A DNA stretch of 64,000 nucleotides from Candidatus Omnitrophota bacterium (GTDB lineage Bacteria > Omnitrophota > Gorgyraeia > S143-82). A program made the position numbers and the translations under genes. Under the pieces are notes generated by a model. The model did not search any database, was not told where the DNA came from, and was given only the letters and a program-made list of their open reading frames with translations. The stretch is from contig WGBD01000001.1 in assembly GCA_015494465.1 (NCBI GenBank), forward strand, positions 25,030 to 89,029, in the 5' to 3' direction. Shown here in pieces: positions 547-63,195 of the stretch; positions within the stretch are counted from its first letter, which is position 1, and each line of letters opens with the position of its first letter.

Positions 547-1031
547 ATCACCCTCTCCAGATGACCGGAACCGTCGGAAGAGATGTAAAAGAGATACCCC
601 TTTACATCCTCGCCAATTCCCCGGGAGAGTATCTCCGCGTACCTGCGCACCTGCTCTGCGTGATCCTGTCGGGGAGATGAAACCTTGTAATCCACCACCG
701 CAGACCCGCCCGCACGCCTCAGGAAAAGATCCACCCGGAACCTCTGCCCCCTCTCCCCGAGGATAGGGACCTCGCAAAAGACCTGAGCACCCTCCACAAG
801 ACGCAACAACGCACCAAAGCCCTCCGAGGCCTCCAATGCCCCAAACAAGGACAGCAACCTCTCCCGAAACTCCTCCCTCAAGCCGTAAGGGAGCATATCC
901 CCAACTGCCCTGTCAACCGCGCCGGTGAGATCTCTATCCCCTGAAAAGTAGGCCTCAAGGGCCCGGTGGACCAACTCCCCGAACCGCCTCTCCTCCCAGC
1001 CGACTACCTCCTCATGCCTTATCCTAATCAT
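543..1031 (-). CDS. RecB-family PD-(D/E)XK nuclease domain protein (AddA/RecB C-terminal-like)
   Basis: Motifs GELVHRALE, VDLFL, VVDYKVSSPRQDHAEQVRRY match RecB nuclease motifs (H..E, D, DYK, Q...Y); start overlaps helicase stop by 8 nt in a different frame. Confidence 0.6.
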   Translation of the reverse strand: MIRIRHEEVVGWEERRFGELVHRALEAYFSGDRDLTGAVDRAVGDMLPYGLREEFRERLLSLFGALEASEGFGALLRLVEGAQVFCEVPILGERGQRFRVDLFLRRAGGSAVVDYKVSSPRQDHAEQVRRYAEILSRGIGEDVKGYLFYISSDGSGHLERVI

Positions 1032-3534
1032 TCGCTCTCACCTCACCTCCGTCTTTAACCAACATGGGCCTTATCACCTCCTGCCAGGAGAAGACATAAC
1101 GGGATGGATCGGTGAGGAAGAGGGTCAACTTCCTCTTTGCCCTCGTCAGGGCCACGTACAAAAGATTGACATCGTCCCAGATGCGCAGGTGGGATTCGTT
1201 GCGGTAAAGTTCCCGCAGGGCAGGATGGCGCTTGGCCATGTTGGAATTGACGTAATATACCCGTATGTTCTCTCCCGGATCCCAGAAGAGATTTCCCTGT
1301 AGGCCCGGGCTGCGGTTCTCTCCTATTTTCACATCCAGAAACGGCAGAATCACCTCGTCGAACTCCAATCCCTTTGCGGAGTGAATGGTCATAACCCTCA
1401 CTGCTGAAGAAGCAAACGGAAGTGCCACCCGCTCGGCCTCCACCGGACTGTCCTCCTGATACTCCCAGAAGCGCAGAAATTCCTTCACGAAGGCACCGTT
1501 CCTGCTCTCCCAGTCCCAGAGGAGGTCCAGAAACGCAGATACAAACAGGTCCTGATCCGGGAAATTCTCCCTTATCCTCAACCTATCAATCAAATTCACC
1601 ACCGTGCGATAGATACTGCCCTCCACCGCCGAATCCAATACTTCCCACACCAGTTGACGGAAATAACCGCTCCCCCGCAGGCGTAGTTCCTCCTGCCAGT
1701 AGGAGAGTGGTTTGCCGGTAAAACAGGCCCAGACCTCCGAGATAATAATCCCCTTCAAAAAGAGATCCTCCTCGGGATAGGCAAGACAGCGAAGGAAGGT
1801 AACCAAGGCCATAACCACCGGATGCCCCACCAGAGTCATGGACTCCTCAGAGATGGCCGATATTCCCTCAACCGTCAGGCGGGAAATGACCTTCCTTGCC
1901 TCCTCCCGCCGTCTCACGAGTATCGCCTTCTCCCCCTCCGGACTGTTTTTCAGATAATCCACCAGTTTCTCTATCAACACATCTTCGTAATCCGACCACG
2001 ACAGGGAAGGATCCCCCTGCACCAGCAGAGAATCCACCTGCCCCTCCTCTTCTTTGACCGGCCTCTGCACCACCGCCTCCTCCGAGAAGACCCTATCCAT
2101 ACGCAACAGGACATCCGATTCAGTTTTATCCTCAGACAACCTGTCCACTATCCCGCTGAACAACTCGTTGTTAAAGGCAACAATCCCTTTGGCACTGCGC
2201 CAGTTACGATCCAAAACAAATTCCCGGAAATCAAACGGAAAGGCCTCCCTCAACATACCAAACATATCCGGATGACTCCCCCGCCAGCGGTATATCGTCT
2301 GCTTGGGATCGCCCACGCAAAACAATAAGCCACCGCTGGCAAGGGCCTCCTCAAAGATGGGCCGTAGGGCAGACCACTGGGAGAGACTCGTATCCTGAAA
2401 CTCGTCTATGAGAAAGTGCGTGTACCTTCCGAAGCGGGCAGAGATACGCTCGGCTACCAGATGGGGATCAAGGTTCGCTATGTCCAACTGGATGAGCGGA
2501 AGATAGGTTATGTCCTTCCGGCGACGCAGGTCGTCAAGCCCCCTCTTGAACGCGGAGTAAACGTACATAAAAGGTGCAGGGAAGGATCGACTAAAGGCCT
2601 CATCCAGACGATTAAAGGTCTCCAGAAGACTCAACCACATCTCGTAAAGTTCACGGGCGGGGTCTTCTGCCACCCTGCCCTTGAGCACACCCCTGCGAAA
2701 GGCCTCGTAGTCGGCGTAGGTGAGACTGAAGAATGTCGTCTTCACATCCTTCACCGACGCCAATATAGACTCACTGAGCCCTTCCAATGCCTCCCGAGAC
2801 CTTTTAGTCAGTTTCACCCTCAACGCATCTGCCCGACTCAGGAACGCATCCCTGAGACGCAGGACCTCCCTGATCAGGCCCTTAAGAGAAGTCGGAGTAA
2901 TGGGTTCTAGTTCCCTGCCGAGATGCGACTGCTTCTCCAGATAGACAGGAAACAGCCACTCCGCATAGCCTATCGGATCCCATCCCCGATAGACCGCCAA
3001 AGAGCGCGAAAAGTAGCCCACGAATCTGTAGATAGAGCGCAATAAAGTGCGATCGCTCTTAGCCCTCTCCAAGGCATGCGATACGATGAGGTCCATATCC
3101 GAACGGATGGACGTGCGCATAGCAGAATAAGGCGACAGGCCCAATTCGAAAGAAAAAGACATCCTCAACTGATTCAGAAAACTGTCTATCGTCTGGATGC
3201 GAATCCGTGAATAGTCAAAAACGAGGTCGATCAAAACCCTACCTGCCTCCTCTCGGACCTCATCCTCCGGCAGATCCAACAACTCCGCAAACTCCCCTGC
3301 CCTGTCCCCATACACCACCTCCATAAGGGTATCAATCACCCGCCTGCGCATCTCCTCCGCAGACTTGTTGGTGAAGGTAATAGCCAAAATAGAATCGGGA
3401 CCAATCCCTTTCAGGAGGAGGGAGATGTAAACCGCAGTTAAGGTATAGGTCTTCCCCGCCCCCGCCGAGGCAATAACCGACACCACCCCCGGCGCAGGCT
3501 TAGTACAATGCCGAACTATTTCTTTTAGGACCAT
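1024..3534 (-). CDS. UvrD/PcrA-family superfamily 1 DNA helicase
   Basis: Walker A ASAGAGKTYT, DEFQDTS, motif VI LLYVALTRAKRKL; ORF track gives GTG start at 3660 but ATG at 3534 is preceded by TATAAT and avoids overlap with upstream gene. Confidence 0.75.
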   Translation of the reverse strand: MVLKEIVRHCTKPAPGVVSVIASAGAGKTYTLTAVYISLLLKGIGPDSILAITFTNKSAEEMRRRVIDTLMEVVYGDRAGEFAELLDLPEDEVREEAGRVLIDLVFDYSRIRIQTIDSFLNQLRMSFSFELGLSPYSAMRTSIRSDMDLIVSHALERAKSDRTLLRSIYRFVGYFSRSLAVYRGWDPIGYAEWLFPVYLEKQSHLGRELEPITPTSLKGLIREVLRLRDAFLSRADALRVKLTKRSREALEGLSESILASVKDVKTTFFSLTYADYEAFRRGVLKGRVAEDPARELYEMWLSLLETFNRLDEAFSRSFPAPFMYVYSAFKRGLDDLRRRKDITYLPLIQLDIANLDPHLVAERISARFGRYTHFLIDEFQDTSLSQWSALRPIFEEALASGGLLFCVGDPKQTIYRWRGSHPDMFGMLREAFPFDFREFVLDRNWRSAKGIVAFNNELFSGIVDRLSEDKTESDVLLRMDRVFSEEAVVQRPVKEEEGQVDSLLVQGDPSLSWSDYEDVLIEKLVDYLKNSPEGEKAILVRRREEARKVISRLTVEGISAISEESMTLVGHPVVMALVTFLRCLAYPEEDLFLKGIIISEVWACFTGKPLSYWQEELRLRGSGYFRQLVWEVLDSAVEGSIYRTVVNLIDRLRIRENFPDQDLFVSAFLDLLWDWESRNGAFVKEFLRFWEYQEDSPVEAERVALPFASSAVRVMTIHSAKGLEFDEVILPFLDVKIGENRSPGLQGNLFWDPGENIRVYYVNSNMAKRHPALRELYRNESHLRIWDDVNLLYVALTRAKRKLTLFLTDPSRYVFSWQEVIRPMLVKDGGEVRAND

Positions 3535-3632
3535 AGGGTTATTATACAGCAATGAGATCCTAGCCCAACAACGAAACTGTCCGGGGAAGGAGGTGTAAGG
3601 CCCCGGACAACTTAATATGGCCTTTAGAAGCG

Positions 3633-4148
3633 TTATCGGTGTCTTCTCCTCCCAAACCACACGAAGCCGTTTTCGTCGATGTAATACTTTTGGAAGGCAA
3701 ACATATAAGGATGGTCAAAGGAGACGAAGTGCCATTGGCCACTCTGACTAATCCTTATCACATTTGACATCGTAACGAAGTCCAGTTGCCAACCCTGAGG
3801 GCCTTTTCTCAAGAAGAAAGGGGCATACTTTAGATCCTGTGGGTAATAGATGACCGCATACCTGCCTTTTATGGCAATCTTAAAAGGGACTCCCTCGTAT
3901 ATTCGCATATTATCCTGTTGGGCGTCGGTCACCGTCCAACGCCTGAAGAACTCTTTGGTCTCGTCGGTGTAGATGTCAAGGTCCGGGTCCTTTACGTGGA
4001 GACGACAGGCCTCCAGATAGCGTTTCAGGGTAAACTCTGGCCTGGATTGGGCACGGAAATAACTCTTATCAAATTCTCTGGCCCATAAGGTAAGACCGAT
4101 CCCAAGCACGAGCAGACACAAGATTACAGAGCTACCTCGCTTCATCAT
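3633..4148 (-). CDS. hypothetical secreted/periplasmic protein
   Basis: 171 aa ORF with N-terminal signal-peptide-like segment MMKRGSSVILCLLVLGIGLTLWA; no family recognised. Confidence 0.5.
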   Translation of the reverse strand: MMKRGSSVILCLLVLGIGLTLWAREFDKSYFRAQSRPEFTLKRYLEACRLHVKDPDLDIYTDETKEFFRRWTVTDAQQDNMRIYEGVPFKIAIKGRYAVIYYPQDLKYAPFFLRKGPQGWQLDFVTMSNVIRISQSGQWHFVSFDHPYMFAFQKYYIDENGFVWFGRRRHR

Positions 4149-4197: not shown

Positions 4198-4235
4198 ATG
4201 AGCCAGATTCTTCTAGAAAGATTTCGTCTCATTTC
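4198..4235 (+). repeat. copy A of a 38-nt start-codon-containing dispersed element
   Basis: ATGAGCCAGATTCTTCTAGAAAGATTTCGTCTCATTTC; 34/38 identical to copy B; opens a 25-codon ORF MSQILLERFRLISVSKGFLGLKAEA. Confidence 0.6.
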
Positions 4236-4271: not shown

Positions 4272-4306
4272 GTGAGACAGATTCCTTATGGAAGATCTTG
4301 TCTCAC
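4272..4306 (+). repeat. copy C (diverged) of the same element, at the GTG start of the plus-strand membrane protein ORF
   Basis: GTGAGACAGATTCCTTATGGAAGATCTTGTCTCAC; shares CAGATTC...RAAGAT...GTCTCA core; ends form an 8-bp inverted repeat GTGAGACA/TGTCTCAC. Confidence 0.5.
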
Positions 4307-5099
4307 AAGGTATGATATAGGGATGAGGTCGGTAGTGTTAGCGCTCGAGTTGTTTCTGTTGGGTTATCTTGGGGCGGTGGTATCGGCCCTGTTGTATAAG
4401 TATGCCCCGAAATTGCATCCCGATCGGGGGTTGCTTCAGGCAAGCGTATTTGCGATACTCAGCCCGTCTTGTCTTTGCGCAAGTTATCCAGTCCTTCTCA
4501 CTATGAACAATCGCTATCTCAGGGTGTACACCGCCAGTCTCTCTGCTCTACTAAGTCCGTACATATTACTCTTTTCCTGGAGGCTGTTGGGCTGGGAGTT
4601 TGCGGGAGAGAGGGTCATCCTTTCCCTCACTTTATCATCCTTAATCGCCTCTTTTACCTACCGCATGGCCCCTCCGGGGGCACCTGTCAAAGACACCCTA
4701 TCCTCACTTGACGAAAGGCCGGCCCTGATGGCTATCGCAAACTCCATATTCAAACTCTCTTTAAGACCGCTCATCCTGACTATAGCGATTTCTCTCCTCG
4801 TGGCAAAGGTGTTGGATCCAAATCTGGTTGGGAAGTACGCCCTTTTCCCGGGCACGCGGACGATGGCGATAATATTGGCAGGTCTTGGAAAGTTCTGCTA
4901 CGGGCAGGAGACATTCCTCTTATATGCTATCCGCGGTCTGCCCCACAATCCGGGATTCCGACTGGGATTTTCACTGACCGGCAGTGGGATATGCCTTGGA
5001 ATGGTGCCTCTCTATCTCAAGATCTACGGCAGGATGGGAACCGCAATCTTTCTAATTACGACCTTCCTATTCGCCCTATCGCTCAATTGGCTCATTTAA
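4272..5099 (+). CDS. hypothetical polytopic membrane protein (start at GTG 4272 or ATG 4320)
   Basis: 275 aa ORF with several hydrophobic helices; one of only three plus-strand genes; GTG start coincides with repeat copy C. Confidence 0.5.
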   Translation: MRQIPYGRSCLTRYDIGMRSVVLALELFLLGYLGAVVSALLYKYAPKLHPDRGLLQASVFAILSPSCLCASYPVLLTMNNRYLRVYTASLSALLSPYILLFSWRLLGWEFAGERVILSLTLSSLIASFTYRMAPPGAPVKDTLSSLDERPALMAIANSIFKLSLRPLILTIAISLLVAKVLDPNLVGKYALFPGTRTMAIILAGLGKFCYGQETFLLYAIRGLPHNPGFRLGFSLTGSGICLGMVPLYLKIYGRMGTAIFLITTFLFALSLNWLI

Positions 5100-5472: not shown

Positions 5473-5957
5473 TCTTCGGCCTCTTCGCCTTCCTTGCCCT
5501 GTCTTCTCTGACGCTTGAAGAGGCTCCTGAGTCCGCCAAACACGCCCTTCTTTTCCTCCTCCTTGGGTGCCTCCACAGAGATCTGTGCAGGCTCACGATA
5601 GAATTCGGTCAGCTCTATTATGCAGAGGCTCGCACCATCTCCTTTACGCCACTGGGCCAGTTTGTATATGCGGGTATAACCACCGTTTCTCTCGCTGAAT
5701 TTGGGAGCAATCTCGTCGAACAGGAGTTTGACCAACTTCCTATCGTTGAGCACCCTGTTTGCCCGGCGCCTGGCTGCGAGTGTGTTCCGTTTACCCAAGG
5801 TGATTAGTTTCTCCACAACCTTACGCACCTCTTTTGCCAGCGCGGGACGGGTCTTTATCCTTTGATGAATCAACAGGGCCTTGGCAAGGTCCCTTAAGAC
5901 CGCACGCCGGGCCCCCATGTTCCGGGAAAGCCTCTGGGACTTCACTCTATGCCTCAT
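5469..5957 (-). CDS. rplQ: 50S ribosomal protein L17, with charged C-terminal extension
   Basis: N-terminus MRHRVKSQRLSRNMGARRAVLRDLAKALL typical of L17; directly downstream of rpoA; about 35 extra C-terminal residues rich in E/K/R. Confidence 0.9.
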   Translation of the reverse strand: MRHRVKSQRLSRNMGARRAVLRDLAKALLIHQRIKTRPALAKEVRKVVEKLITLGKRNTLAARRRANRVLNDRKLVKLLFDEIAPKFSERNGGYTRIYKLAQWRKGDGASLCIIELTEFYREPAQISVEAPKEEEKKGVFGGLRSLFKRQRRQGKEGEEAEE

Positions 5958-6964
5958 GATTCCCCTTCTCCTTCGCTTGTCTCAGGTTTGTATATCCGAG
6001 GATCTATCTTCATACCCAACGAGAGACCCAACTTGGCAAGGACCTCCTTTATCTCGTTCAGCGACTTCTTTCCGAAGTTCCGGTAAGAGAGCATCTCCTG
6101 TTCGGTTTTCATCACCAATTCGCCGATGGTTTTTATGTTGGCCTGTGAAAGGCAGTTAGTGGATCTGACCGAAAGTTCCAGTTCACTGATGGGCATACGC
6201 AGTTTCTCTGCCAGTTCCCTCTCTTCGGGCGTGAGGGAGGATTCGTCTTCGCCACCTTCCTCCTCCTCTATGTGCCCGAGTTCCGAGAAGATGTCGAGGT
6301 ACTTTCTCAATACCGTCGCGGAATAGACCAATGCCTCTTTTGGCTCTATAGCCCCGTTAGTGAAGACCTCTATTATCAACCTGTCGTAATCGGTCTGCTG
6401 ACCTACACGGGTGTTCTCCACCCTATAACTAACTCTCTGCACCGGGCTGAATATCGCATCCACTCCAATGGTACCTACAGGTCTCTCTTTCTTATTCTCC
6501 TCTGCGGGAAGATAACCCCGCCCTCTCTCTAACTCCATTTCCATGTAGAACTCCACATCCCCGGTTATGGTGGCGATGTGGTGGTCCTTGTTTACCACCT
6601 CAACGGTCTCGTCGGTAACGATGTCGGAAGCAGTCACCTCACCCGGGCCCTTCTTCTTTATGTGGACCTTCTTGGGGAAGGTGCCGTGGGCCTTGAACAC
6701 TAAGCGCTTTATGTTCAGGACTATGTCGGTAACGTCCTCCAATACGCCCTCTACCGCCGAGAACTCGTGAAGGGCACCGTCTATTTTCACCGAGGTCACT
6801 GCAACCCCGTCTATGCAGGACAGGAGCATCCTCCTAAGGGAATTCCCAAAGGTAACCCCATAACCTCTCTCTAGAGGCTCGGCCACAAATCTACCGTAGG
6901 TCGGTGTATGCTCTTCTACGACTATCTTCTTTGGCATCTGGAATTCACGCCACTTTATCCCCAT
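5954..6964 (-). CDS. rpoA: DNA-directed RNA polymerase subunit alpha
   Basis: EPLERGYGVTFGNSLRR N-terminal domain motif; C-terminal domain; position after rpsD. Confidence 0.95.
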   Translation of the reverse strand: MGIKWREFQMPKKIVVEEHTPTYGRFVAEPLERGYGVTFGNSLRRMLLSCIDGVAVTSVKIDGALHEFSAVEGVLEDVTDIVLNIKRLVFKAHGTFPKKVHIKKKGPGEVTASDIVTDETVEVVNKDHHIATITGDVEFYMEMELERGRGYLPAEENKKERPVGTIGVDAIFSPVQRVSYRVENTRVGQQTDYDRLIIEVFTNGAIEPKEALVYSATVLRKYLDIFSELGHIEEEEGGEDESSLTPEERELAEKLRMPISELELSVRSTNCLSQANIKTIGELVMKTEQEMLSYRNFGKKSLNEIKEVLAKLGLSLGMKIDPRIYKPETSEGEGES

Positions 6965-8049: not shown

Positions 8050-8433
8050 TTATACACCTGACTTCTTCTTGGCTCGCTTCAGGAGATTACCGCGAGGCCC
8101 CTTTCTGGTCCGGGCATTGGTCTTGGTCCTCTGCCCCCTGACCGGAAGGCCCTTCTTGTGCCGAATCCCTCTATAGCAGTTTATCTCCATCAACCTTTTT
8201 ATATTCTGTGCGACCTCCCTGCGCAGGTCACCTTCTACCTTGTAGTTTTTCTGGATAATCTCGGTTATCCGGGCGATCTCTGCCTCGGATAGGTCCTTGG
8301 CCCGCTTCATGGGGTCTATCTGGGCCTGTTTGAGTATCTCGCTGGACCTGCTCCGCCCTATCCCGTAAATGTAGGTCAGGGCTATCCAGATCGTTTTATC
8401 CTTCGGTATGTCGACACCCAGTATCCTCGGCAT
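8050..8433 (-). CDS. rpsM: 30S ribosomal protein S13
   Basis: [13 protein letters not shown]... typical S13 N-terminus. Confidence 0.95.
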
Positions 8434-14696: not shown

Positions 14697-15026
14697 TTAA
14701 ACGATCGCTCCACAGGACCTGCATATCCTGACCTTCTTACCATCCGACTCCACGCGAAATCCGACCCTAACACCACGCTTGCACTCGGGGCAGTAGAGCA
14801 TAACATTGGAGATGTCCATAGGCATCTCCACCTCTGTTATCCCGCCGGGCAACTCCTCGCTTATCCTTCTCACATGCTTCTTTGCCTTGTTCACGCCTTC
14901 CACGAGGACCTTGCCCTTGTCCCTGAGGACGCGCAGGACGCGCCCCATCTTGCCCTTGTCCTTGCCGGTTATAACCACGACCGTGTCGTCTTTCTTTATC
15001 TTCTTGAACTTCAACATCCCTATCAC
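14697..15026 (-). CDS. rplX: 50S ribosomal protein L24
   Basis: 109 aa; KOW motif region ...[16 protein letters not shown]... Confidence 0.95.
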
Positions 15027-38309: not shown

Positions 38310-39449
38310 CTACCTCCTCCTCAAGAACGCCACCACCTCCACATGTGGGGTGTGAGGGAACATATCCACCGCCTTAAAGTCCACCAACTCGTAGACCGAG
38401 AGCAGATCCTTGAGGTCTGCCATAAAGGTCAGGGGATTGCAGGATATGTATACGAGGTCCCGCGCCCCCAACTTGGCCACCCTATACCGGACCTTAGGAG
38501 GCATCCCAGAGCGTGGGGGATCGATTATCACGCAGTCAAACTGCCCCCGCCAGTTGGGATTCAGGCCTAACAAGGCGCGGACATTTCCCTTGAGCATAGA
38601 GTAGCCCTTTATCCCGTTCAGTAGGAGATTCTGCTTGGCCTCCCCAACCGCCCCGTCGTCCATCTCTATACCCAAGACCTCAAATCCCGCCTTCGCCAAG
38701 ACCAGCCCTATCCCCCCCGAACCCGCATACAGATCCAACACCTTGCCCTGAACATTATTAGAAACGTAATCCTTTACCCAGGCGTAGAGTATCTCCGTGC
38801 TCCAGGGATTGACCTGAAAGAATCCCCGCAGGCCTACCACGAACCTCATCCCGAGGATCTCCTCTACCAGATACCCCGCTCCCCTCAGGTGAACGACCCG
38901 GTCATAACCCACCGCATCCCCCCAACCATCGTGGACCACCCAGTAAAGCGTATCCACCCAGTCCAGATCAGAAAACCGCCGGGCCAACTCCTCTCCCAAG
39001 ACCTGCCCCTGGGAAGAGGTCACCAACGCCAGGAGATATTCCTCCTTACGGGTCCGCTTGACCACCACATACCTCAAGAAGCCCTTGTGAGAGTACTTGT
39101 CGTAGGGGATGAGGGAATGCTCACGGGCGAAATCCCGCAGGACATCAAGTAGTTCGGGCAGGCGCTCGGAAAACAGAAGGCACTCCTGGAGGTCTATTAC
39201 CCTCCGGTTCTGTCCCCTCTGATGGAACCCCAAGAATACCTCTCCCCCCTCACCCCGAGAAAAGGTGAGCTCGACCTTGTTCCGGTAAAAAAAAACGCGC
39301 GGGGAGGGCTCTACCTCGAACTCCGGCAGATCAACCTTGTGCTTATAGGCCTGCTTGTGCACCAGATCCCGCTTGAGGCCCAATTGCTCCTCGTAAGGCA
39401 CATCCTGTATGGCACAGCCTCCGCAGACCCCAAAGTGTTTACACAGCAT
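38310..39449 (-). CDS. RNA (uracil-C5)-methyltransferase, RlmD/TrmA family
   Basis: N-terminal Cys cluster CKHFGVCGGC, SAM-binding VLDLYAGSGGIGLVLA, catalytic region DPPRSG. Confidence 0.75.
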   Translation of the reverse strand: MLCKHFGVCGGCAIQDVPYEEQLGLKRDLVHKQAYKHKVDLPEFEVEPSPRVFFYRNKVELTFSRGEGGEVFLGFHQRGQNRRVIDLQECLLFSERLPELLDVLRDFAREHSLIPYDKYSHKGFLRYVVVKRTRKEEYLLALVTSSQGQVLGEELARRFSDLDWVDTLYWVVHDGWGDAVGYDRVVHLRGAGYLVEEILGMRFVVGLRGFFQVNPWSTEILYAWVKDYVSNNVQGKVLDLYAGSGGIGLVLAKAGFEVLGIEMDDGAVGEAKQNLLLNGIKGYSMLKGNVRALLGLNPNWRGQFDCVIIDPPRSGMPPKVRYRVAKLGARDLVYISCNPLTFMADLKDLLSVYELVDFKAVDMFPHTPHVEVVAFLRRR

Positions 39450-40338
39450 ACCCCAGCTCCCTTATAAGATCGGGATCGTTCATCCAATCCTCGTCTACCT
39501 TGACCCACAGATCCAGATGCACCTTCTTGCCAAACAACAACTTCAACTCCTTCCTGGCCCTCGTGCCCGCAGCCTTAATGAGCTGTCCCTCCCTACCAAT
39601 AATTATACCCTTGTGCCTGTGCTCCTTGGTAATCACCACTGCCTTTATATATATAAGGTCTGGCCTCTCTTCCCTAATCTCCTCAACCACCACCGTAAGA
39701 TAGTGGGGGATCTCCTCGCGCAAGAGGTTAAGGAATTTTTCTCTAATTACCTCTGCCACAAAGAGTTTCAACGGAAAATCCGTCTTCATGTGCTCGGGAT
39801 AGTAATAGTGATCCGCAGGAGGCAAGAGCTCAAACAGGGCATCTATAACCTCATCTACCCCTTCTCCTCGAATAGCGGAGACCGGGATAAAGTACTTGGT
39901 AATCTCCTTCGTCTCCTCGATGTAGTCGTTCACAAAGCCCTTACCCTTGTCCTTTTTATTGAGGGCGACCACCACCGGCTTGGAGACCTCCTTGAGGGTA
40001 TCAATGATAACCCGCTCCTCCTGCCCAATCTTGTCGTGGATGTCCACCACATAAAGGACCGCATCCACATTCTGCAGGGCAGTGAAGGCAGTGTTGTTGA
40101 ACCGCTTAGCCAAGGGAAAGCGTATGAGATTTATCCCCGGGGTATCCACGAAAACGATCTGTCCCCGGTCATCGGTGTATATTCCCCTCACCTGATGGCG
40201 GGTGGTCTGGGGAACCGGAGATATAATAGAGACCTTGTGATTCAATATAGCGTTCAGCAGGGTAGACTTCCCCGTATTGCATCGTCCCACTATGGCAACA
40301 AACCCAGCCTTTTTGGACATAGCGGTATATTCTATCAC
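39439..40338 (-). CDS. era: GTPase Era
   Basis: G1 GRCNTGKST, G3 DTPG, G4 NKKD, C-terminal KH domain; TAGAAT 9 nt upstream of ATG without Shine-Dalgarno. Confidence 0.93.
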   Translation of the reverse strand: MIEYTAMSKKAGFVAIVGRCNTGKSTLLNAILNHKVSIISPVPQTTRHQVRGIYTDDRGQIVFVDTPGINLIRFPLAKRFNNTAFTALQNVDAVLYVVDIHDKIGQEERVIIDTLKEVSKPVVVALNKKDKGKGFVNDYIEETKEITKYFIPVSAIRGEGVDEVIDALFELLPPADHYYYPEHMKTDFPLKLFVAEVIREKFLNLLREEIPHYLTVVVEEIREERPDLIYIKAVVITKEHRHKGIIIGREGQLIKAAGTRARKELKLLFGKKVHLDLWVKVDEDWMNDPDLIRELGYAV

Positions 40339-40378
40339 AAAAGAGTAGAATCCTCCCCACTAATCCACCCCCGGATCT

Positions 40379-40416
40379 ATGACACAGATTCTTCCAGAAA
40401 GATTTTGTCTCATTTC
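40379..40416 (+). repeat. copy B of the 38-nt element, antisense to flanking genes
   Basis: ATGACACAGATTCTTCCAGAAAGATTTTGTCTCATTTC in the 309-nt spacer between the small membrane protein gene and era; opens plus-strand ORF 40379..40711. Confidence 0.6.
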
Positions 40417-44270: not shown

Positions 44271-44460
44271 CTCTCCTCACCTCATCTGGAAATATAACAA
44301 AAATTAAACCAAAGTCAACAAATTGATTGAAAAAATGCAACAAAATTGACGAATTAATTTAACAATATTGAATGGCTACTCCATTCCCCCTCCCATCCAC
44401 CCCTCAGCAAGGCTCTCAATCCTAACTCTGGTCCTATATATGTGTTAAAATTAATCCGTA
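44271..44460. promoter_or_regulatory. AT-rich divergent promoter region between DUF2089 gene (minus) and comM-rpoN (plus)
   Basis: 190 nt far more AT-rich than surroundings; direct repeats CAACAAATTGA / CAACAAAATTGA / AATATTGAA; minus-strand TTGACT-N16-TATATT plus SD GGTGAGGAG; plus-strand TAAAAT 10 nt before comM ATG. Confidence 0.5.
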
Positions 44461-45990
44461 ATGGCAGGTATAGTTAAAGTACACAGTATCGGAATGTTTG
44501 GGGTGGAAACGGTACCGGTTGAGGTGGAGGTGGACCTCTCCAGCGGACTGCCGAGCGTAGCGATCGTCGGACTTCCTGATTCAGCGGTAAGAGAGAGCAA
44601 GGAGCGGATAAGGTCCGCCCTAAAAAACACCTTCAACACCCTACCCAAAGGCAGGTTGACGATAAGCCTTGCCCCTGCAGATGTCAAAAAGGAAGGGGCA
44701 TTCTTTGACCTGCCGATAGCCCTGGCGATCCTTGCCCACCTCGAGGTCCTGCCCCGCCAAACCCTGCAGGAGTTCACCATCATCGGAGAACTGTCTCTGG
44801 ACGGGAAGGTGCGCAGGGTAAACGGGGCCCTGGCCATAGCAGACGAGGTGGCAAGGTCGGCCAAATTGCCTCAGAAACTTATCCTACCCCACGCCAACAG
44901 GTTAGAGGCCAGCTTGATAAGAGATCTTCAATTATACCCGGTCAAGAGTCTCGCGGAGGCAGTCGAGGTAATTCTCGATCCGGAACGACCTCCTTATTCC
45001 CGGCAGGGAGAACCAGACATAGAAAACGAATCGCTTAACGAAGACCTGGACTTCGCGGAGGTGAAGGGGCAGGAGACCGCCAAGCGGGCATTGGAGATAT
45101 CCGCTGCCGGTGGACACAATGTCCTTATGGTCGGCCCCCCGGGAACGGGCAAGACCATGCTCGCCCGCAGGCTCCCGACCATCCTTCCACCCCTTACCGA
45201 GGCCCAGATAGTGGAGACGACCAAGATATACAGTATAAAAGGGCTCCTCGGGGAAGACGGCATCGTCCGCAGGCCACCCTTCCGAGCCCCTCACCACAGC
45301 AGTAGCGCCCCTGCAGTAGTAGGCGGAGGCAATCCCCCGATGCCCGGTGAGATAAGCCTCGCCCACAACGGGGTGCTGTTTCTAGACGAGCTGCCGGAAT
45401 TCCGCAGGGATGTCATAGAGGCCCTGAGGGAGCCCATGGAAGAGGGATACATCCGCATCTCTCGGGCAGGCACTACCACCAGGTTTCCCGCCAGATTCAT
45501 AATGATTGCAGCGATGAACCCCTGCCCCTGCGGTTACCTCAACAGCACCCGTCGGACCTGCGTGTGCGAAGAGTACCAGATACAGAGGTACCGCAGAAAG
45601 GTCTCTGGACCCATTCTGGACAGGATAGACCTACACATAGAGGTCAACGACATAGAACCGGAGAAACTACAAGCCAGTGAATCCTCGGTGGATTCCGCCT
45701 CTATGAGGGAACGGGTCATAAAGGCACGGGAACGCCAGAGGTGGCGCTTTCGTGATACCCCGATAGAGACCAACTCCCAGATGAGCAACAGACTCATAAG
45801 ACTCCACTGCAGACTGGACGATAAGGCCCAGGAGATGCTCAAACAGGCAGTCCTGCGCCTGGGACTGTCCACCCGGGCCTACACCCGCACCCTCAAGGTG
45901 GCAAGGACCATAGCGGACCTCGAGAACAGTGAGCAGATAAAGACCACGCACATACTCGAGGCCCTCACCTACCGGTTTTCTTGGCAATGA
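44461..45990 (+). CDS. comM: Mg-chelatase-like AAA+ ATPase YifB/ComM
   Basis: 509 aa; N-terminal Lon-protease-like domain, Walker A GPPGTGKTMLA, C-terminal Mg-chelatase domain. Confidence 0.9.
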   Translation: MAGIVKVHSIGMFGVETVPVEVEVDLSSGLPSVAIVGLPDSAVRESKERIRSALKNTFNTLPKGRLTISLAPADVKKEGAFFDLPIALAILAHLEVLPRQTLQEFTIIGELSLDGKVRRVNGALAIADEVARSAKLPQKLILPHANRLEASLIRDLQLYPVKSLAEAVEVILDPERPPYSRQGEPDIENESLNEDLDFAEVKGQETAKRALEISAAGGHNVLMVGPPGTGKTMLARRLPTILPPLTEAQIVETTKIYSIKGLLGEDGIVRRPPFRAPHHSSSAPAVVGGGNPPMPGEISLAHNGVLFLDELPEFRRDVIEALREPMEEGYIRISRAGTTTRFPARFIMIAAMNPCPCGYLNSTRRTCVCEEYQIQRYRRKVSGPILDRIDLHIEVNDIEPEKLQASESSVDSASMRERVIKARERQRWRFRDTPIETNSQMSNRLIRLHCRLDDKAQEMLKQAVLRLGLSTRAYTRTLKVARTIADLENSEQIKTTHILEALTYRFSWQ

Positions 45991-47318
45991 AGCAGAAGCT
46001 GACCCAGACCACATCCATCCGACAGGAGATACACCTCACTCCCCAGATGCAGCAGTTTCTCAAGGTCATACAAATGCCTGCATTGGAACTGTACCAGTTT
46101 ATACAAACCGAACTGGAGAACAATCCCCTCCTAGAGGCGGAGATGGACTACGAGGTGCTACAGGACCAACCCACGCCGCCAGAAGACATAACTGAGACCC
46201 TGCCCGATCCCGACACCCTCTTCACCCAAGACCTCTACAATCCCGTAAACGAGCAATACGACTACGGAGACAGCGACCACCTTCGTCCTGAACCAACCTG
46301 TAGGGAGAACTGGCGGAGTCAGGCAGTAAAAGACCTCAGGTTAACACTGGATGAGAGAGAGGCCAAGATCGCAGAGTACATAATATTCAACCTCGACGAG
46401 GAGGGCTTTCTCAAACTCACCGACGAAGAGATCGCCCAGGCTCTGGGGGTTGAGGAAGAGGAGGTCCAATCGACACTTGCCCACCTGAGACAGATACTGC
46501 CTCCCGGTCTCACCGCCCGCACCGTGAAGGAGTGCCTCCTCCTGCAGATAGAACGACGGGAAGGCAGGGAAAGTCCGACCTACCGCATAGTAAACGAGGC
46601 CTTCTCCGACCTCATACGCAGAAGATACAGGAAGATCGCCCGAGAATTAAAGCTGCCCCTAAAACAGGTCAACCTCGTCGCCCAGAACCTTTCTCGATAC
46701 CGCACCCGTCCATTGGTCGCCAAGGACATCCCCGCCTGCGCCTACCCCGAATACGAGATAAAGGTAGTGGACGGACAGATAGTGATAGAGAGGATATCCA
46801 CCCTGCCCGTCCCAAGGCTTCGTTTAAATCAAAGGTACATAGAGACCCTGCGCAATTCCAAGGACAGATCTGCCCGCAAGTTCCTCTCCCATTACCTGCA
46901 AAGGGCAAAGGCAGTGATACAGGCCACCCGAGAGCGGGAGGAGAAACTGCTGTCTCTCCTGCAATTCCTGGCCCAGCGCCAACGGGAATTCGTAGAGAGT
47001 GGACCTGCTTACCTAAAGCCCCTCACCATGAAACAGGCCTCGCGTACCACCGGCCTGTCGGAATCAACCATCTCCCGACTGGCTAATAACAAGTTCGTGC
47101 AGGTCCCGTGGGGATGCATCAGGATAAAGGACTTCTTCCTCAATCCCCTCTCCTACACCAACGACACACCCAGAGATATGATATTGGGAATCATCAGGGA
47201 GATCATAGAATCCTCGGACAAACGCTTATCCGACGAGAAGATACGGGAACTCCTCAAGGAACGCGGTATACAACTATCCCGCAGGACAGTGAACAAATAT
47301 AGGCACATGCTGGGATGA
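45981..47318 (+). CDS. rpoN: RNA polymerase sigma-54 factor
   Basis: 445 aa; region I, core-binding region, C-terminal RpoN box RRTVNKYR; start overlaps comM stop by 10 nt. Confidence 0.92.
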   Translation: MAMKQKLTQTTSIRQEIHLTPQMQQFLKVIQMPALELYQFIQTELENNPLLEAEMDYEVLQDQPTPPEDITETLPDPDTLFTQDLYNPVNEQYDYGDSDHLRPEPTCRENWRSQAVKDLRLTLDEREAKIAEYIIFNLDEEGFLKLTDEEIAQALGVEEEEVQSTLAHLRQILPPGLTARTVKECLLLQIERREGRESPTYRIVNEAFSDLIRRRYRKIARELKLPLKQVNLVAQNLSRYRTRPLVAKDIPACAYPEYEIKVVDGQIVIERISTLPVPRLRLNQRYIETLRNSKDRSARKFLSHYLQRAKAVIQATREREEKLLSLLQFLAQRQREFVESGPAYLKPLTMKQASRTTGLSESTISRLANNKFVQVPWGCIRIKDFFLNPLSYTNDTPRDMILGIIREIIESSDKRLSDEKIRELLKERGIQLSRRTVNKYRHMLG

Positions 47319-50801: not shown

Positions 50802-51655
50802 CCCCGCTCCCCGGCCCTGAAGACCACATTGTCTATCAGCCTGGCCCGGCCGAACCAGACCGCCATCGCTAAGACATACCTCTCCCCGGGAGCTAACTTC
50901 CTCACCGGTGCCATGTCCTCCCAGCGCACCAGCTCCACATAATCGACCTTTCCCCCCGCCATTTCCACATCCCTAGCCAGTTCCTTCAACACCCTGCCGA
51001 CCTGCCTGCCTGCGAGGAGTTCCCGTTTGCCCTTCAACAGGCTCTGGTATATGATGGGAGCCTTTCTCCTCTCCTCTTCAGATAAATACACATTGCGAGA
51101 GCTCATCGCCAGACCGTCAGGCTCCCTGACTATCGGCATTATCCTTATCCTTATCGGGAAGTTGAGGTCCGCAACCATCTGTTCTATGATCCTGGCCTGC
51201 TGGACATCCTTCTGACCGAAGTAGGCCACATCCGGCATCACTATGTTGAACAGTTTGGCCACCACCGTACAGACCCCCCGAAAGTGTCCGGGCCGGGATG
51301 CCCCACAGAGGTGCTTATCCAATTCCTTTACCTCTACATAGGTGAGAAAGGGTTGAGGATACATTTCCTCTACGGAAGGTGCGAACACGAGATCTACTCC
51401 CGCCTCCTTACACAGTTTAAGGTCCCGACGCAGATCCCGGGGATACCTGCGGTAGTCTTCTCTGGGACCAAACTGTATGGGATTCACGAAGATGCTGACC
51501 ACGACGAAGTCGTTGTACTTGCGGGCCTGGCGGATAAGTGAGAGGTGCCCCTCGTGGAGGTAGCCCATGGTGGGAACGAAGCCCACCCTCTGACCTCGCC
51601 TCTTGGCCGAATCAACTGCCTTGCGCACCGTGGTTATCTTCTTGGCTACCTTCAT
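50798..51655 (-). CDS. panC: pantoate--beta-alanine ligase
   Basis: 285 aa; GFVPTMGYLHEGHLSL HIGH-type motif. Confidence 0.92.
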   Translation of the reverse strand: MKVAKKITTVRKAVDSAKRRGQRVGFVPTMGYLHEGHLSLIRQARKYNDFVVVSIFVNPIQFGPREDYRRYPRDLRRDLKLCKEAGVDLVFAPSVEEMYPQPFLTYVEVKELDKHLCGASRPGHFRGVCTVVAKLFNIVMPDVAYFGQKDVQQARIIEQMVADLNFPIRIRIMPIVREPDGLAMSSRNVYLSEEERRKAPIIYQSLLKGKRELLAGRQVGRVLKELARDVEMAGGKVDYVELVRWEDMAPVRKLAPGERYVLAMAVWFGRARLIDNVVFRAGERG

Positions 51656-53742
51656 GACCCACTATTATACGACAGTTCCAGCGCCTCCTCCACTATCCGT
51701 GGCTCTATCCCCTCCATACACACCTTTACCTCCCGCGGACAGTCCTTTTTATAACAAGGGGCACAGGTATCCAGATAGACTACCCGAAATCGAGCCTTGA
51801 TCCTTCCCGGCGGAAGGGGGACATGCCTTTGGGGCGAGGTAGGCCCGAAGTAGACCACCGTCGGCACCTTGAGGGCAAAGCCGAGGTGCATAAGGGCACT
51901 GTCCGGGGTTATCAGCAGAGAAAGGCTTGCTACTATCCGCAACAGTTCCTTAACCGAGGACCTTCCCACGAGGTCCACCAAGGAAATCCCCTTAGAGGAG
52001 AGCTCCCGAACCAACTCCTTCGCCACTTCTCTATCCCTATCCACCCCCAACAGGACGAAGGTCGCCTTCAGCTTTGCGGAAAGGTCCTCTATCACCCGCA
52101 GGATCTGATCCTTATCAAGAGACTTACTTTTCCAGCGGGATGACATCACGATGCCAATCAATCTATCTTTCATCTCTCCGCTTACCAGATTGGCGAGGAG
52201 TTTGAGCCTGACGGTCTCCTTCTCCTCGTCGGAGACTTCAAATAGGGGAGACTCCGGAGGGATGGGCTGGATCCCGGCGGACCTCAGGAATCTCACCTGC
52301 TCAAGAAGGGGGAAGTCCTGAACATACTCTATCGGATCCGTGTAGAGAAACCTCCCCAACTTCCGGGCATAGCCAAGTGTCCGGTAGGCCCCGGACCGGC
52401 TGGCCAGGAACTGCGTCTTCACCTTCCCCTGCAGGTCAAAGACCACATCCGGACCCCAGCGTCTTAGCCATCTTCCATCCACTCCCCGGCAATCCTTTGC
52501 CCGCTCCCCCCAGAGATCGCAGGTGTACTCAGAACCCACCACCACAAGGTCAGAACCCGGAAATTGCCTCCGTATAGACTCAAACGAATAGGTCCCCAGC
52601 ACGACATCCCCAAAAGAGGAGGTCTTGATAATGCCTATCGAATAGGTCCCGTACACCTCCTCGTAGACCTTAAGCGTGCGCTCGCACATCTCCTCAAGGC
52701 TATAACGCTGACTCTCCCTAAACCCCCTCTCCGCCAAGGCACTGGCCAGGTCCCGCCTGCGAATCAGCAATTCCATCTTCTCTGCCCAGTCGCCCGGATC
52801 GCCGGGCCGGGCCAGAAGTCCGGTCTGAGAATGGGCAATCAACTCGTTGAGCGCGGGAAGGTCCGAGGCGATAACCGGACGGCCTACTGCCCAAGCCTCC
52901 AGGACTGCCCTCCCGAAGGACTCCGGATACACCGAGGGCACCAGCACCGCATAGGCCTTGGCCAGCAATCCCGCCACATCCTTAACCGGCCCCAGGAACC
53001 TGACCGACGATCCCAAGGAAAAGCGGGTAATCAGGGAACGCAGGCGGGAATAGTACTTCTCCTTCCGCCCCACATCCCCGGCTACCCACAATTGGGCACT
53101 GGGGAAGTTCCTGACCACCTTGGCAAAGGCCTCGAGGGCAACATGGATCCCCTTGTTCGGGGTTATACGGCTTACGATGAGGAATATCGGCTCATCCACT
53201 ACCCTCGCCTTGGGGAATTCCTCCCGTTCAACCCCGCGGGGGATAACCACTATCTTGGCCTCCGGGACCCCAAACACCGAATGCATGTGTTCCGCTATCA
53301 ATTGGGAGGGAGTTATCACCCGCCTGCCCATCCCCATCACCCAGGAGATGGGACCGCGGGAATACAGGCCGTGGCAGGTGGTAACGAAGTTCACCACCTT
53401 GGGGTACCTCTCTCGGGCAAACCTCCGGCGGTTGACCCAGCGCACCGCATGATACCCTATCCAGCCCGGCACCCGGGAGCGGGCATGGACTATGTCCACG
53501 CCCAATTCCTCTATCAAGTGCGCCAAGCGAGGGACCTGGGCGAGCATAACCAGAGGATTCTTGGAGTGCACCGGCATACGGATGTGCCTTGCCCCCATCC
53601 TCTCAAGGCTGGACTGCCTCCATCCCCCGGAAGAGACGACTATCGCGGTGTGCCCCTGAGATATCAGGTAGGAGCAGACCTCAACAGTGCCCCGTTCCAC
53701 CCCCCCGCTGTCGAGTTTAGGCAGGATCTGGAGTACCTTCAT
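51652..53742 (-). CDS. bifunctional glycosyltransferase: N-terminal GT4 fused to C-terminal GT9 (heptosyltransferase-like)
   Basis: N-half GT4 ...PSVYPESFGRAVLEAWAVGRPVIASD...; C-half GT9 ...IKTSSFGDVVL...LLITPDSALMHLGFALKVPTVVYFGPTSP; single 696 aa ORF. Confidence 0.75.
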   Translation of the reverse strand: MKVLQILPKLDSGGVERGTVEVCSYLISQGHTAIVVSSGGWRQSSLERMGARHIRMPVHSKNPLVMLAQVPRLAHLIEELGVDIVHARSRVPGWIGYHAVRWVNRRRFARERYPKVVNFVTTCHGLYSRGPISWVMGMGRRVITPSQLIAEHMHSVFGVPEAKIVVIPRGVEREEFPKARVVDEPIFLIVSRITPNKGIHVALEAFAKVVRNFPSAQLWVAGDVGRKEKYYSRLRSLITRFSLGSSVRFLGPVKDVAGLLAKAYAVLVPSVYPESFGRAVLEAWAVGRPVIASDLPALNELIAHSQTGLLARPGDPGDWAEKMELLIRRRDLASALAERGFRESQRYSLEEMCERTLKVYEEVYGTYSIGIIKTSSFGDVVLGTYSFESIRRQFPGSDLVVVGSEYTCDLWGERAKDCRGVDGRWLRRWGPDVVFDLQGKVKTQFLASRSGAYRTLGYARKLGRFLYTDPIEYVQDFPLLEQVRFLRSAGIQPIPPESPLFEVSDEEKETVRLKLLANLVSGEMKDRLIGIVMSSRWKSKSLDKDQILRVIEDLSAKLKATFVLLGVDRDREVAKELVRELSSKGISLVDLVGRSSVKELLRIVASLSLLITPDSALMHLGFALKVPTVVYFGPTSPQRHVPLPPGRIKARFRVVYLDTCAPCYKKDCPREVKVCMEGIEPRIVEEALELSYNSGS

Positions 53743-62615: not shown

Positions 62616-63195
62616 CCCTCAAGACCCTCCGCATCACATCGTACGGGAGCATGTCCTTGGGGGCGTGGGCGTCGTTATTCACCACCACGGATGCCCCAAT
62701 CTCCCGGGCCAATCTGAGGACCCAGCCATTGGCGTAGCAGTGCCCGGATCGGGTGGTTATCTCCAGCCTCACACCCTTGATCCTGGCCAACTCCACTTCC
62801 CTCTCCGAGATAAACCCCGGGTGGGCAAGGATGTCACAGCCCGCCTCTATTGCCGACAGATTCGTGCCCTCCGCAACCGGCTCAACCGGACTCTCCCCGT
62901 GGACAACCACCACCCTCGCCCCCAGGGTGCGGGCCAGAGAGATCATCTTGCCTATCTTGGAAGGCGGGACATGGGTCAACTCCACCCCAGGAAGGACCTT
63001 TAAAGGATAGTCCTTGGGCAGATTATCCACGAAGGTAATGAGGGACTCCAACACGAACTCCAGATTGGAGGCATCGCAGTGATCGGTAATAGCGATCACA
63101 TCAAAACCGAGAGACATGTATCGTTGGGCTATCTCCGACGGCACACAACAGCCGTCGCTAAAGACAGAGTGTATGTGCAGATCCGCCTTAAGCAT
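62524..63195 (-). CDS. PHP-domain metal-dependent phosphoesterase
   Basis: 223 aa; LHIHSVFSDG and ITDHCD His-rich motifs of the PHP family. Confidence 0.75.
   Translation of the reverse strand: MLKADLHIHSVFSDGCCVPSEIAQRYMSLGFDVIAITDHCDASNLEFVLESLITFVDNLPKDYPLKVLPGVELTHVPPSKIGKMISLARTLGARVVVVHGESPVEPVAEGTNLSAIEAGCDILAHPGFISEREVELARIKGVRLEITTRSGHCYANGWVLRLAREIGASVVVNNDAHAPKDMLPYDVMRRVLRGAGADEEFISRAEEENERFLRSLISAGDSA

Follow-up and report, generated by a model that had tools for sequence, protein, structure and literature searches.

The window, a 64,000-nucleotide (nt) stretch of contig WGBD01000001.1 from an uncultivated Omnitrophota-like bacterium, carries three genes, encoding a UvrD/AddA-like helicase, Era and ComM, in which a -10-like box lies 6 to 9 nt ahead of an ATG start codon that lacks a Shine-Dalgarno (SD) sequence. 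We consider it likely, with a probability of about 0.78, that these boxes are extended -10 promoters from which transcription would start at the AUG itself or no more than 3 nt before it, giving rise to leaderless mRNAs. Judging from the loci compared here, roughly one operon-first gene in three in the lineage would regularly be expressed in this way. A first-pass annotation of the window had suggested such leaderless transcripts, and all expectations of a leaderless reading that can be followed at the sequence level hold, namely the position of the starts, the location of the genes at the head of their operons, the lack of an SD, a conserved box, a positional peak of boxes before starts and the TG of extended -10 elements.

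Promoter boxes of the helicase, era and comM genes

The three genes and their boxes are as follows.

1024..3534, minus strand: UvrD/AddA-like helicase, 836 aa; start ATG 3534 (complement of 3532-3534), without SD; NCBIfam and Pfam matches
3541..3546, minus strand: helicase -10 hexamer TATAAT; gap AACCCT (3535-3540), 6 nt to the ATG
39439..40320, minus strand: era, 293 aa; start ATG 40320; NF000908 covers residues 4-291
40329..40337, minus strand: era extended -10 TGaTAGAAT (in full TGTGaTAGAAT); 8-nt gap, 40321-40328
44461..47318, plus strand: comM/yifB (44461-45990, 509 aa) and overlapping rpoN (sigma-54; 45987-47318, Pfam Sigma54 domains)
44443..44451, plus strand: comM extended -10 TGtTAAAAT (TGTGtTAAAAT from 44441); 9-nt gap to ATG 44461

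The sequences preceding the ATG are, read 5' to 3', ctgTATAATaaccctATGGTCCTAAAA for the helicase, tgTGaTAGAATataccgct for era and tgTGtTAAAATtaatccgtaATG for comM. All three motifs noticed in the first-pass annotation were found, with some adjustments. The helicase TATAAT does lie 6 nt before ATG 3534, on the minus strand, although the interval originally delimited, which ended at 3545, cut off one base of the box. For era the TAGAAT near the start is present, but the start had been placed at 40338 when the ATG is at 40320, and the gap is 8 nt rather than 9; position 40338 corresponds to an in-frame GTG whose TG forms the TG of the era extended -10. The TAAAAT before ATG 44461 of comM is separated from it by 9 nt instead of about 10. 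The term extended -10, with its TGn, applies to era and comM and to their orthologs but not to the helicase, which displays a perfect TATAAT with the TG displaced by one position (TGTATAAT); the ortholog in locus L003 has GG at that place.

For comparison, orthologous loci from about five related species represented by metagenome-assembled genomes (MAGs) were used (helicase: L003, L004, L006, L045 and L046; era: L001/L008, L007 and L009; comM: L010, L011, L012 and L014). Among named relatives, a 'Candidatus Omnitrophota' MAG comes closest, at an Era identity of 81%; it was recovered by a contig search with Era that returned one useful locus. A metagenome scan with the helicase gave only distant UvrD-like proteins and no orthologs, and Rfam and tRNA scans gave no match near the flagged sites.

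Shine-Dalgarno contrast

SD strength was scored as the duplex energy of positions -20 to -3 with ACCUCCUUU for 73 curated genes of the window, which has a GC content of 54%. An energy of -6 kcal/mol or lower was obtained for 55 of the 73 genes and of -8 or lower for 42, most values falling between -8 and -13 kcal/mol. The helicase, era and comM scored +0.9, +0.2 and +0.9 kcal/mol, respectively, which amounts to no complementarity to the anti-SD and agrees with the earlier statement that these genes lack an SD. Likewise, the ribosomal protein (r-protein) genes and the DUF2089 gene, to which clear GGAGG-type SDs had been attributed, are among the genes scoring -6 or lower. Seven genes in the window lie above -3, the three flagged ones and four whose start overlaps the upstream stop and which are therefore translationally coupled. 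An SD is also absent upstream of the helicase in all six sequences, the window included.

Start codon assignment

Every one of these genes starts with ATG, an assignment backed by profile coverage, by the N-termini of orthologs and by in-frame stops. For the helicase, the alignment with NCBIfam RecB/AddA-like profiles begins at residue 18-19, eight orthologs measure 832-843 aa, and the N-terminus is kept across the five ortholog loci (M-[VIL]-x-[KDE]-[IE]-I...PGV), in each of which the ATG is the first start codon past an in-frame stop situated 3-27 nt upstream, with no start codon in between. The helicase starts GTG 3660, TTG 3552 and GTG 3483 were ruled out by this ortholog and profile evidence. 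Era orthologs begin with MAKSGFV, MAKAGFV or MPKSGFV, the start lying 3-4 residues ahead of GFV, and in L001 an in-frame TAA is found 6 nt upstream of the era ATG. Position 1 of the TIGR00368 profile aligns to residue 7 of the 509-aa ComM, whose residues 1-14 (MAGIVKVHSIGMFG) are conserved in the orthologs.

These data bear on the explanation that the start codons are mis-assigned and that the true starts are SD-led, for instance GTG 40338 of era, GTG 44503 of comM or GTG 3483 of the helicase, the boxes being irrelevant or placed within coding sequence. Public annotations do choose such codons: a ComM that is 100% identical over its length (P0241, 495 aa, METVPV...) is annotated from GTG 44503 and is 14 aa short, the ComM of L010 (P0242, L010 25-43) is annotated from a later GTG, six codons late and 6 aa short, and a 96%-identical Era (P0121) starts at the GTG equivalent to 40338 (MIEYTAMSKK...) and is 6 aa longer. 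A GGAGG is moreover present upstream of GTG 40338. Nevertheless, the extension from GTG 40338 is absent from all other orthologs and the SD spacing of 13 nt is poor, GTG 44503 is ruled out by the profile alignment and the conserved N-terminal residues of ComM, and the Era N-termini, the TAA of L001 and the in-frame stops of the five helicase orthologs all speak for the ATG codons. Mis-assignment of the starts is, in our judgment, scarcely credible.

A separate observation concerns the region ahead of era, where GGGAGG-type sequences occur 13-45 nt upstream of the ATG in two genomes (L001 1126-1170; window 40339-40360, minus strand). In L001 one such sequence precedes an 8-codon mini-open reading frame (ORF), MVNVLVML, whose stop codon falls inside the TATAAT box. 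The presence of these sequences is probably a coincidence.

Genomic context and conservation of the boxes

The helicase, era and comM genes each head a transcription unit, with upstream gaps of 98, 327 and 190 nt, respectively, and with upstream neighbours that vary among genomes. The era operon comprises era, a tRNA U5-methyltransferase-like gene, a Na/Ca exchanger gene and lepA (down to 35517); it is kept in L007, L008 and L009, with a different gene upstream in each. The two-gene comM-rpoN operon is kept in all relatives, and its divergent upstream neighbour differs each time. Downstream of the helicase in the window are PD-(D/E)XK nuclease genes, which together with it make up an AddAB-like module; in the ortholog loci the module consists of a small gene of ~160 aa and a gene for a PD-(D/E)XK protein of ~915 aa. 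The gap upstream of the helicase contains a hairpin:

3574..3613, minus strand: 13-bp GC-rich hairpin, then UCGUUGUU; placed between the helicase -10 and the stop codon (3633) of the preceding gene

The local stem is present in both the minimum free energy and the centroid structures and is followed by a U-rich tail, while the fold of the whole segment is not significant (z = -0.96). It is a possible terminator, by its predicted structure, that would split the upstream gene from the helicase unit; the terminator scan missed it because its loop is 14 nt long.

Box and spacing are kept in four of the six helicase sequences: TATAAT-6 in the window and in L003, TGgTATACT-9 in L045 (43% amino acid identity) and GATAAT-10 in L006. 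With L003, whose helicase is 86% identical, the window shares an identical block of 24 nt from -13 to +9 (GTATAATAACCCTATGGTCCT); outside this block the upstream DNA can barely be aligned, and past it the coding sequence already displays synonymous changes. In era, box and spacing are kept in all four distinct sequences, the orthologs having TATGcTATAAT-9-ATG (L001/L008), TATGtTATAAT-9-ATG (L007) and GATAAT-8-ATG (L009), with TRTGnTA(T/G)AAT as consensus. In comM they are kept in the window, L010, L012 and L014, where the gap is 7 in L012 and the box reads TATCAT-8-ATG in L014. The window, L010 (91% amino acid identity), L012 (58%) and L011 (60%) share an identical 11-mer, TGTGTTAAAAT, amid upstream DNA that is otherwise unalignable. 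In L004 and L006 the ATG codons of the helicase and of a divergent ArsP-like permease are merely 20-21 nt apart (L004 2980-3001; L006 2979-3001), and the permease has boxes of its own, TGaTATCAT-6-ATG and TATGgTATTAT-6-ATG; the promoters must therefore overlap one another and the opposite coding sequence.

A further box was seen elsewhere in L012. At 5829-5856, within the 372 nt that separate rpoN from a radical-SAM gene, TGTGaTAAAAT precedes by 7 nt the ATG of a 127-codon ORF that the source annotation does not call. By its sequence, this ORF may be a missed leaderless gene, or it may reflect a wrong start of the downstream gene.

Distribution of boxes relative to start codons

In order to assess how boxes are distributed, an annotation-free survey covered the window and the related loci (~183 kb), in which the first ATG of each ORF of at least 100 aa was taken and matches to TATAAT of at least 5/6, with A2 and T6 fixed, were tabulated by gap. 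The gaps 6 to 10 displayed a peak, with counts of 8, 4, 5, 9 and 3 against ~0.6 per bin elsewhere. With two further loci added, 25 of 246 first-ATG sites had a box at a gap of 6-10, whereas composition-preserving shuffles gave 6.4 +/- 2.3 and never more than 13 in 500, and other 5-nt gap windows contained 1-5 sites. A selection artefact, by which stops within TAA-containing hexamers would inflate the matches before a first ATG, was rejected because it should produce a period-3 enrichment at all gaps, and none was seen in the control windows.

A second survey was based on 164 genes, that is, independent calls for the loci together with the curated window list, and took as a box any -10 match of 5/6 or better with a gap of 4-11 to the start. 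A box was found before 15 of 49 operon-first genes and 4 of 115 operon-internal ones (Fisher p = 3.5e-6), and within the window alone before 4 of 13 and 1 of 59, respectively (Fisher p = 0.003). Among the operon-first genes, 14 of the 31 without an SD had a box as opposed to one of the 18 with an SD (p = 0.004). The TG of an extended -10 stood ahead of 10 of 19 boxes, when 1/16 would be expected (p = 5e-8), an enrichment of ~8-fold at -15/-14. At least nine gene families have a box: the helicase, the permease, a 258-aa protein starting at ATG 4323, era, comM, queH, a DUF212 protein, a GGDEF protein and a 177-aa protein.

These results must be set against the explanation that the boxes are chance AT-rich hexamers and that the promoters lie further upstream, the SD-less leaders being translated independently of an SD through an unstructured A/U-rich leader and protein S1. 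In its favor, window-wide counts of TATAAT, TGNTANAAT and TGNTANNNT equal those of shuffled sequences, with no enrichment, and no -35 was found at the flagged sites. The helicase orthologs of L046 and L004, moreover, have neither an SD nor a well-placed -10, and SD-independent initiation on a short leader therefore seems to occur in the clade. However, the peak at gaps 6-10 exceeds every composition-matched shuffle, box and spacing are kept amid unalignable flanks, the TG is enriched at exactly -15/-14, and the boxes are concentrated at operon-first genes. In fact, TGNTANAAT has just three matches in 128 kb (both strands), and two of them precede, by 8-9 nt, the ATG of operon-first genes that have no SD. 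It is the position relative to starts, and not the overall count, that is informative, and the boxes are not chance. As a whole, this explanation appears unlikely.

Proposed promoter architecture

The conservation of the boxes bears on another explanation, in which the A/T-rich element would act not as a DNA promoter but as an RNA translational enhancer or standby site in a 5' untranslated region (UTR). The element does occupy the SD position in SD-less genes. On the other hand, what is kept goes beyond A/U richness, since it comprises T1, A2 and T6, the positions read by sigma, and the TG two bases upstream, and a UTR would hardly fit into the divergent intergenic regions of 20-21 nt found in L004 and L006. 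In addition, the comparable motif of Deinococcus radiodurans cannot be replaced by a ribosome-binding site and acts as a -10 element (PMC12340547). We regard an RNA element as very improbable.

We consider it likely instead that the boxes are sigma-70-type -10 elements, mostly of the extended form TRTGnTAnAAT, which would work without a good -35. Transcription normally begins 7-10 nt past the -10, and the transcript leaders would therefore measure 0-3 nt. With a gap of 6, as in the helicase and in the gene at ATG 4323, the A of the ATG would be the optimal transcription start, and with gaps of 8-9, as in era and comM, the ATG would fall within the start range, leaving a leader of at most about 3 nt. 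In comM the G three nt upstream of the ATG may serve as an alternative start, and at its gap of 9 a leader of 1-3 nt would be as likely as none. The resulting mRNAs, devoid of 5' UTR and SD, would be translated by ribosomes binding the 5'-terminal AUG, a mode inferred from leaderless mRNAs studied in other bacteria, while the downstream genes of the same operons would rely on ordinary SDs or on coupling through overlapping stop and start codons.

Leadered operon-first genes of the window have like -10 boxes, but 20-38 nt upstream of an SD-led start, as in TGtTATATT with TTGACT (DUF2089 gene), TGgTATTAT (gene at 63195) and TATAAT (gene at 4148), and it is therefore plausible that a single housekeeping sigma factor serves the two classes.

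Several points weigh against leaderless transcription. No -35 of at least 4/6 was found at 16-18 nt from the boxes of the helicase, era and comM, and the consensus promoter scan missed all three sites because it demands such a match, finding a full promoter for the DUF2089 gene only; a missing -35 is to be expected for extended -10 promoters, but the helicase is without a correctly placed TG. A convincing -10 at the expected distance is lacking from two of the six helicase sequences, L004 and L046, and in L011 the comM box is followed by an in-frame ATG after 15 nt and by the annotated ATG after 45 nt. The GGAGG of the window stands 13 nt ahead of the in-frame GTG 40338 used as the start in the annotation of P0121. 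In the folds computed for the first 40 nt of four mRNAs, comM and the helicase are weakly structured, while era belongs to the most structured genes, its coding sequence reaching -9.3 kcal/mol over this stretch (rank 68 of 73). The orthologous sites entering the statistics are not independent observations and, for any single gene, a promoter further upstream with an SD-less leader may be at work.

Other boxes and neighboring features

Further boxes and a contrasting promoter were located in the window.

4311..4325, plus strand: fourth candidate, TATGAT (4311-4316), 6-nt gap, ATG 4323; 258-aa protein
51653..51669, minus strand: panC TATAAT (51664-51669), 8-nt gap, ATG 51655; no SD; start overlaps the glycosyltransferase stop (ATGA)
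44291..44318, minus strand: DUF2089 gene promoter TTGACT-16-TGtTATATT, ~20 nt upstream of start 44270; SD GAGGTGAGGAG

The gene at ATG 4323 is divergent from the gene ending at 4148, its anti-SD duplex scores -3.9 kcal/mol, and profile searches gave no family match for its product. Its ortholog in L003 shares an identical caaggTATGATatagggATG and an independently called start that also gives 258 aa. The TATAAT of panC would be either an internal promoter inside the upstream glycosyltransferase gene or a chance match. The DUF2089 gene, as read from its sequence, is a contrast case, leadered, SD-led and operon-first.

A palindromic intergenic repeat of ~33 bp, TGAGAC-N21-GTCTCA (e.g. aaATGAGACAAAATCTTTCTGGAAGAATCTGTGTCATag), was observed near several of these genes.

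Window: 33-bp palindrome copies at 4199-4231, 4273-4305 and 40380-40412
L003: copies at 6762-6790, 6846-6878 and 8134-8166
L009: copies at 14905-14972

Those preceding era and the gene at 4148 are identical at about 35 of 38 positions. At 4273-4305 the 8-nt arms are perfect, and this copy stops 4 nt short of the TATGAT of the gene at ATG 4323; it therefore overlaps the -35 position. The palindrome may serve as an operator bound by a dimeric regulator, or it may be a hairpin element like those of the repetitive extragenic palindromic (REP) type.

Between 5092 and 35452, on the minus strand, the window holds an unbroken array with rpmG, tRNA-Trp, secE, nusG, rplKAJL, rpoBC, rpsLG, fusA and tuf, which continues with the S10, spc and alpha operons. 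Nearly all genes of the array have a strong GGAGG SD; the SDs of secE and rpmG, both located after tRNA genes, are weak.

Discussion

Leaderless genes have been demonstrated by differential RNA sequencing in Deinococcus deserti (PMC4007540), and they have been verified by mutagenesis in D. radiodurans and Thermus, where the -10 is typically about 6-7 bp upstream of the ORF (PMC12340547). The genes described here resemble the TA-led genes of Deinococcus-Thermus in having no SD and no conserved -35, in coexisting with SD-led genes in the same genome, in keeping the motif among orthologs and in causing mis-annotation of start codons. In contrast to that group, the middle positions of the box are informative here (TAtAAT-like), an upstream TG or TRTG is frequent, the putative leaderless fraction looks lower, at ~30% of operon-first genes compared with 47-60% of mRNAs in D. 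deserti, and the transcription starts are predicted from the sequence.

In Mycobacterium tuberculosis the Pribnow box is found 6-8 nt from gene starts (PMC6028130). The present arrangement is similar to the dual start model of Mycobacterium and other Actinobacteria, GeneMarkS-2 'group C', with a Pribnow box 6-8 nt from operon-first starts and an SD otherwise (PMC6028130; PMC3898074), a group in which 25-50% of operons are predicted to be leaderless (PMC6028130; PMC3898074). It differs from the 'group C' set in belonging to an Omnitrophota-like MAG lineage of medium GC (54%) and in resting on ~183 kb as opposed to a whole-genome classification.

Zheng et al. (2011; PMC3160421) regard a gene as leaderless when a TANNNT is located around position -10 with respect to its start codon; they note that TAtaaT-like signals occur in medium-GC phyla and that a TG peak replaces the -35 in some low-GC genomes. 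The present boxes carry the 'TA-led' signature of that study and are interpreted by the same rule of inference; no mention of Omnitrophota was found in text passages of that paper. Likewise, full-text literature searches returned nothing on leaderless mRNAs in Omnitrophota or Omnitrophica.

The boxes are also akin to the extended -10 or '-16 region' TRTGn promoters of Firmicutes, reportedly described by Voskuil and Chambliss in 1998. Era (TGTGa, TATGc, TATGt), comM (TGTGt) and several other genes have this element and no usable -35. TRTGn promoters of Firmicutes normally drive leadered, SD-containing mRNAs, whereas the boxes described here abut SD-less start codons.

It is tempting to go further and consider leaderless initiation as a lineage-wide major mode that defines a functional set, independent of the SD/anti-SD pairing and favored under stress or in altered ribosome states, with some promoters also controlled by the TGAGAC-N21-GTCTCA palindrome that abuts or precedes them. 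The set would include era-lepA (ribosome quality control), comM-rpoN (sigma-54), the AddAB-like break-repair helicase, and cyclic di-GMP and membrane proteins. At present we hold this extension to be speculative and rather doubtful.

Leaderless architecture is well known in Actinobacteria and Deinococcus-Thermus, and the boxes reported here would extend this form of expression, known yet phylogenetically patchy, to an uncultivated Omnitrophota-like lineage. They also provide a usable promoter consensus for the lineage, TRTGnTAnAAT. Public MAG annotations choose wrong starts for such genes, comM being shortened by 14 aa (P0241) or 6 aa (P0242) and era lengthened by 6 aa (P0121), and gene callers with a leaderless model, such as that of GeneMarkS-2 group C, would be a better choice for this clade.

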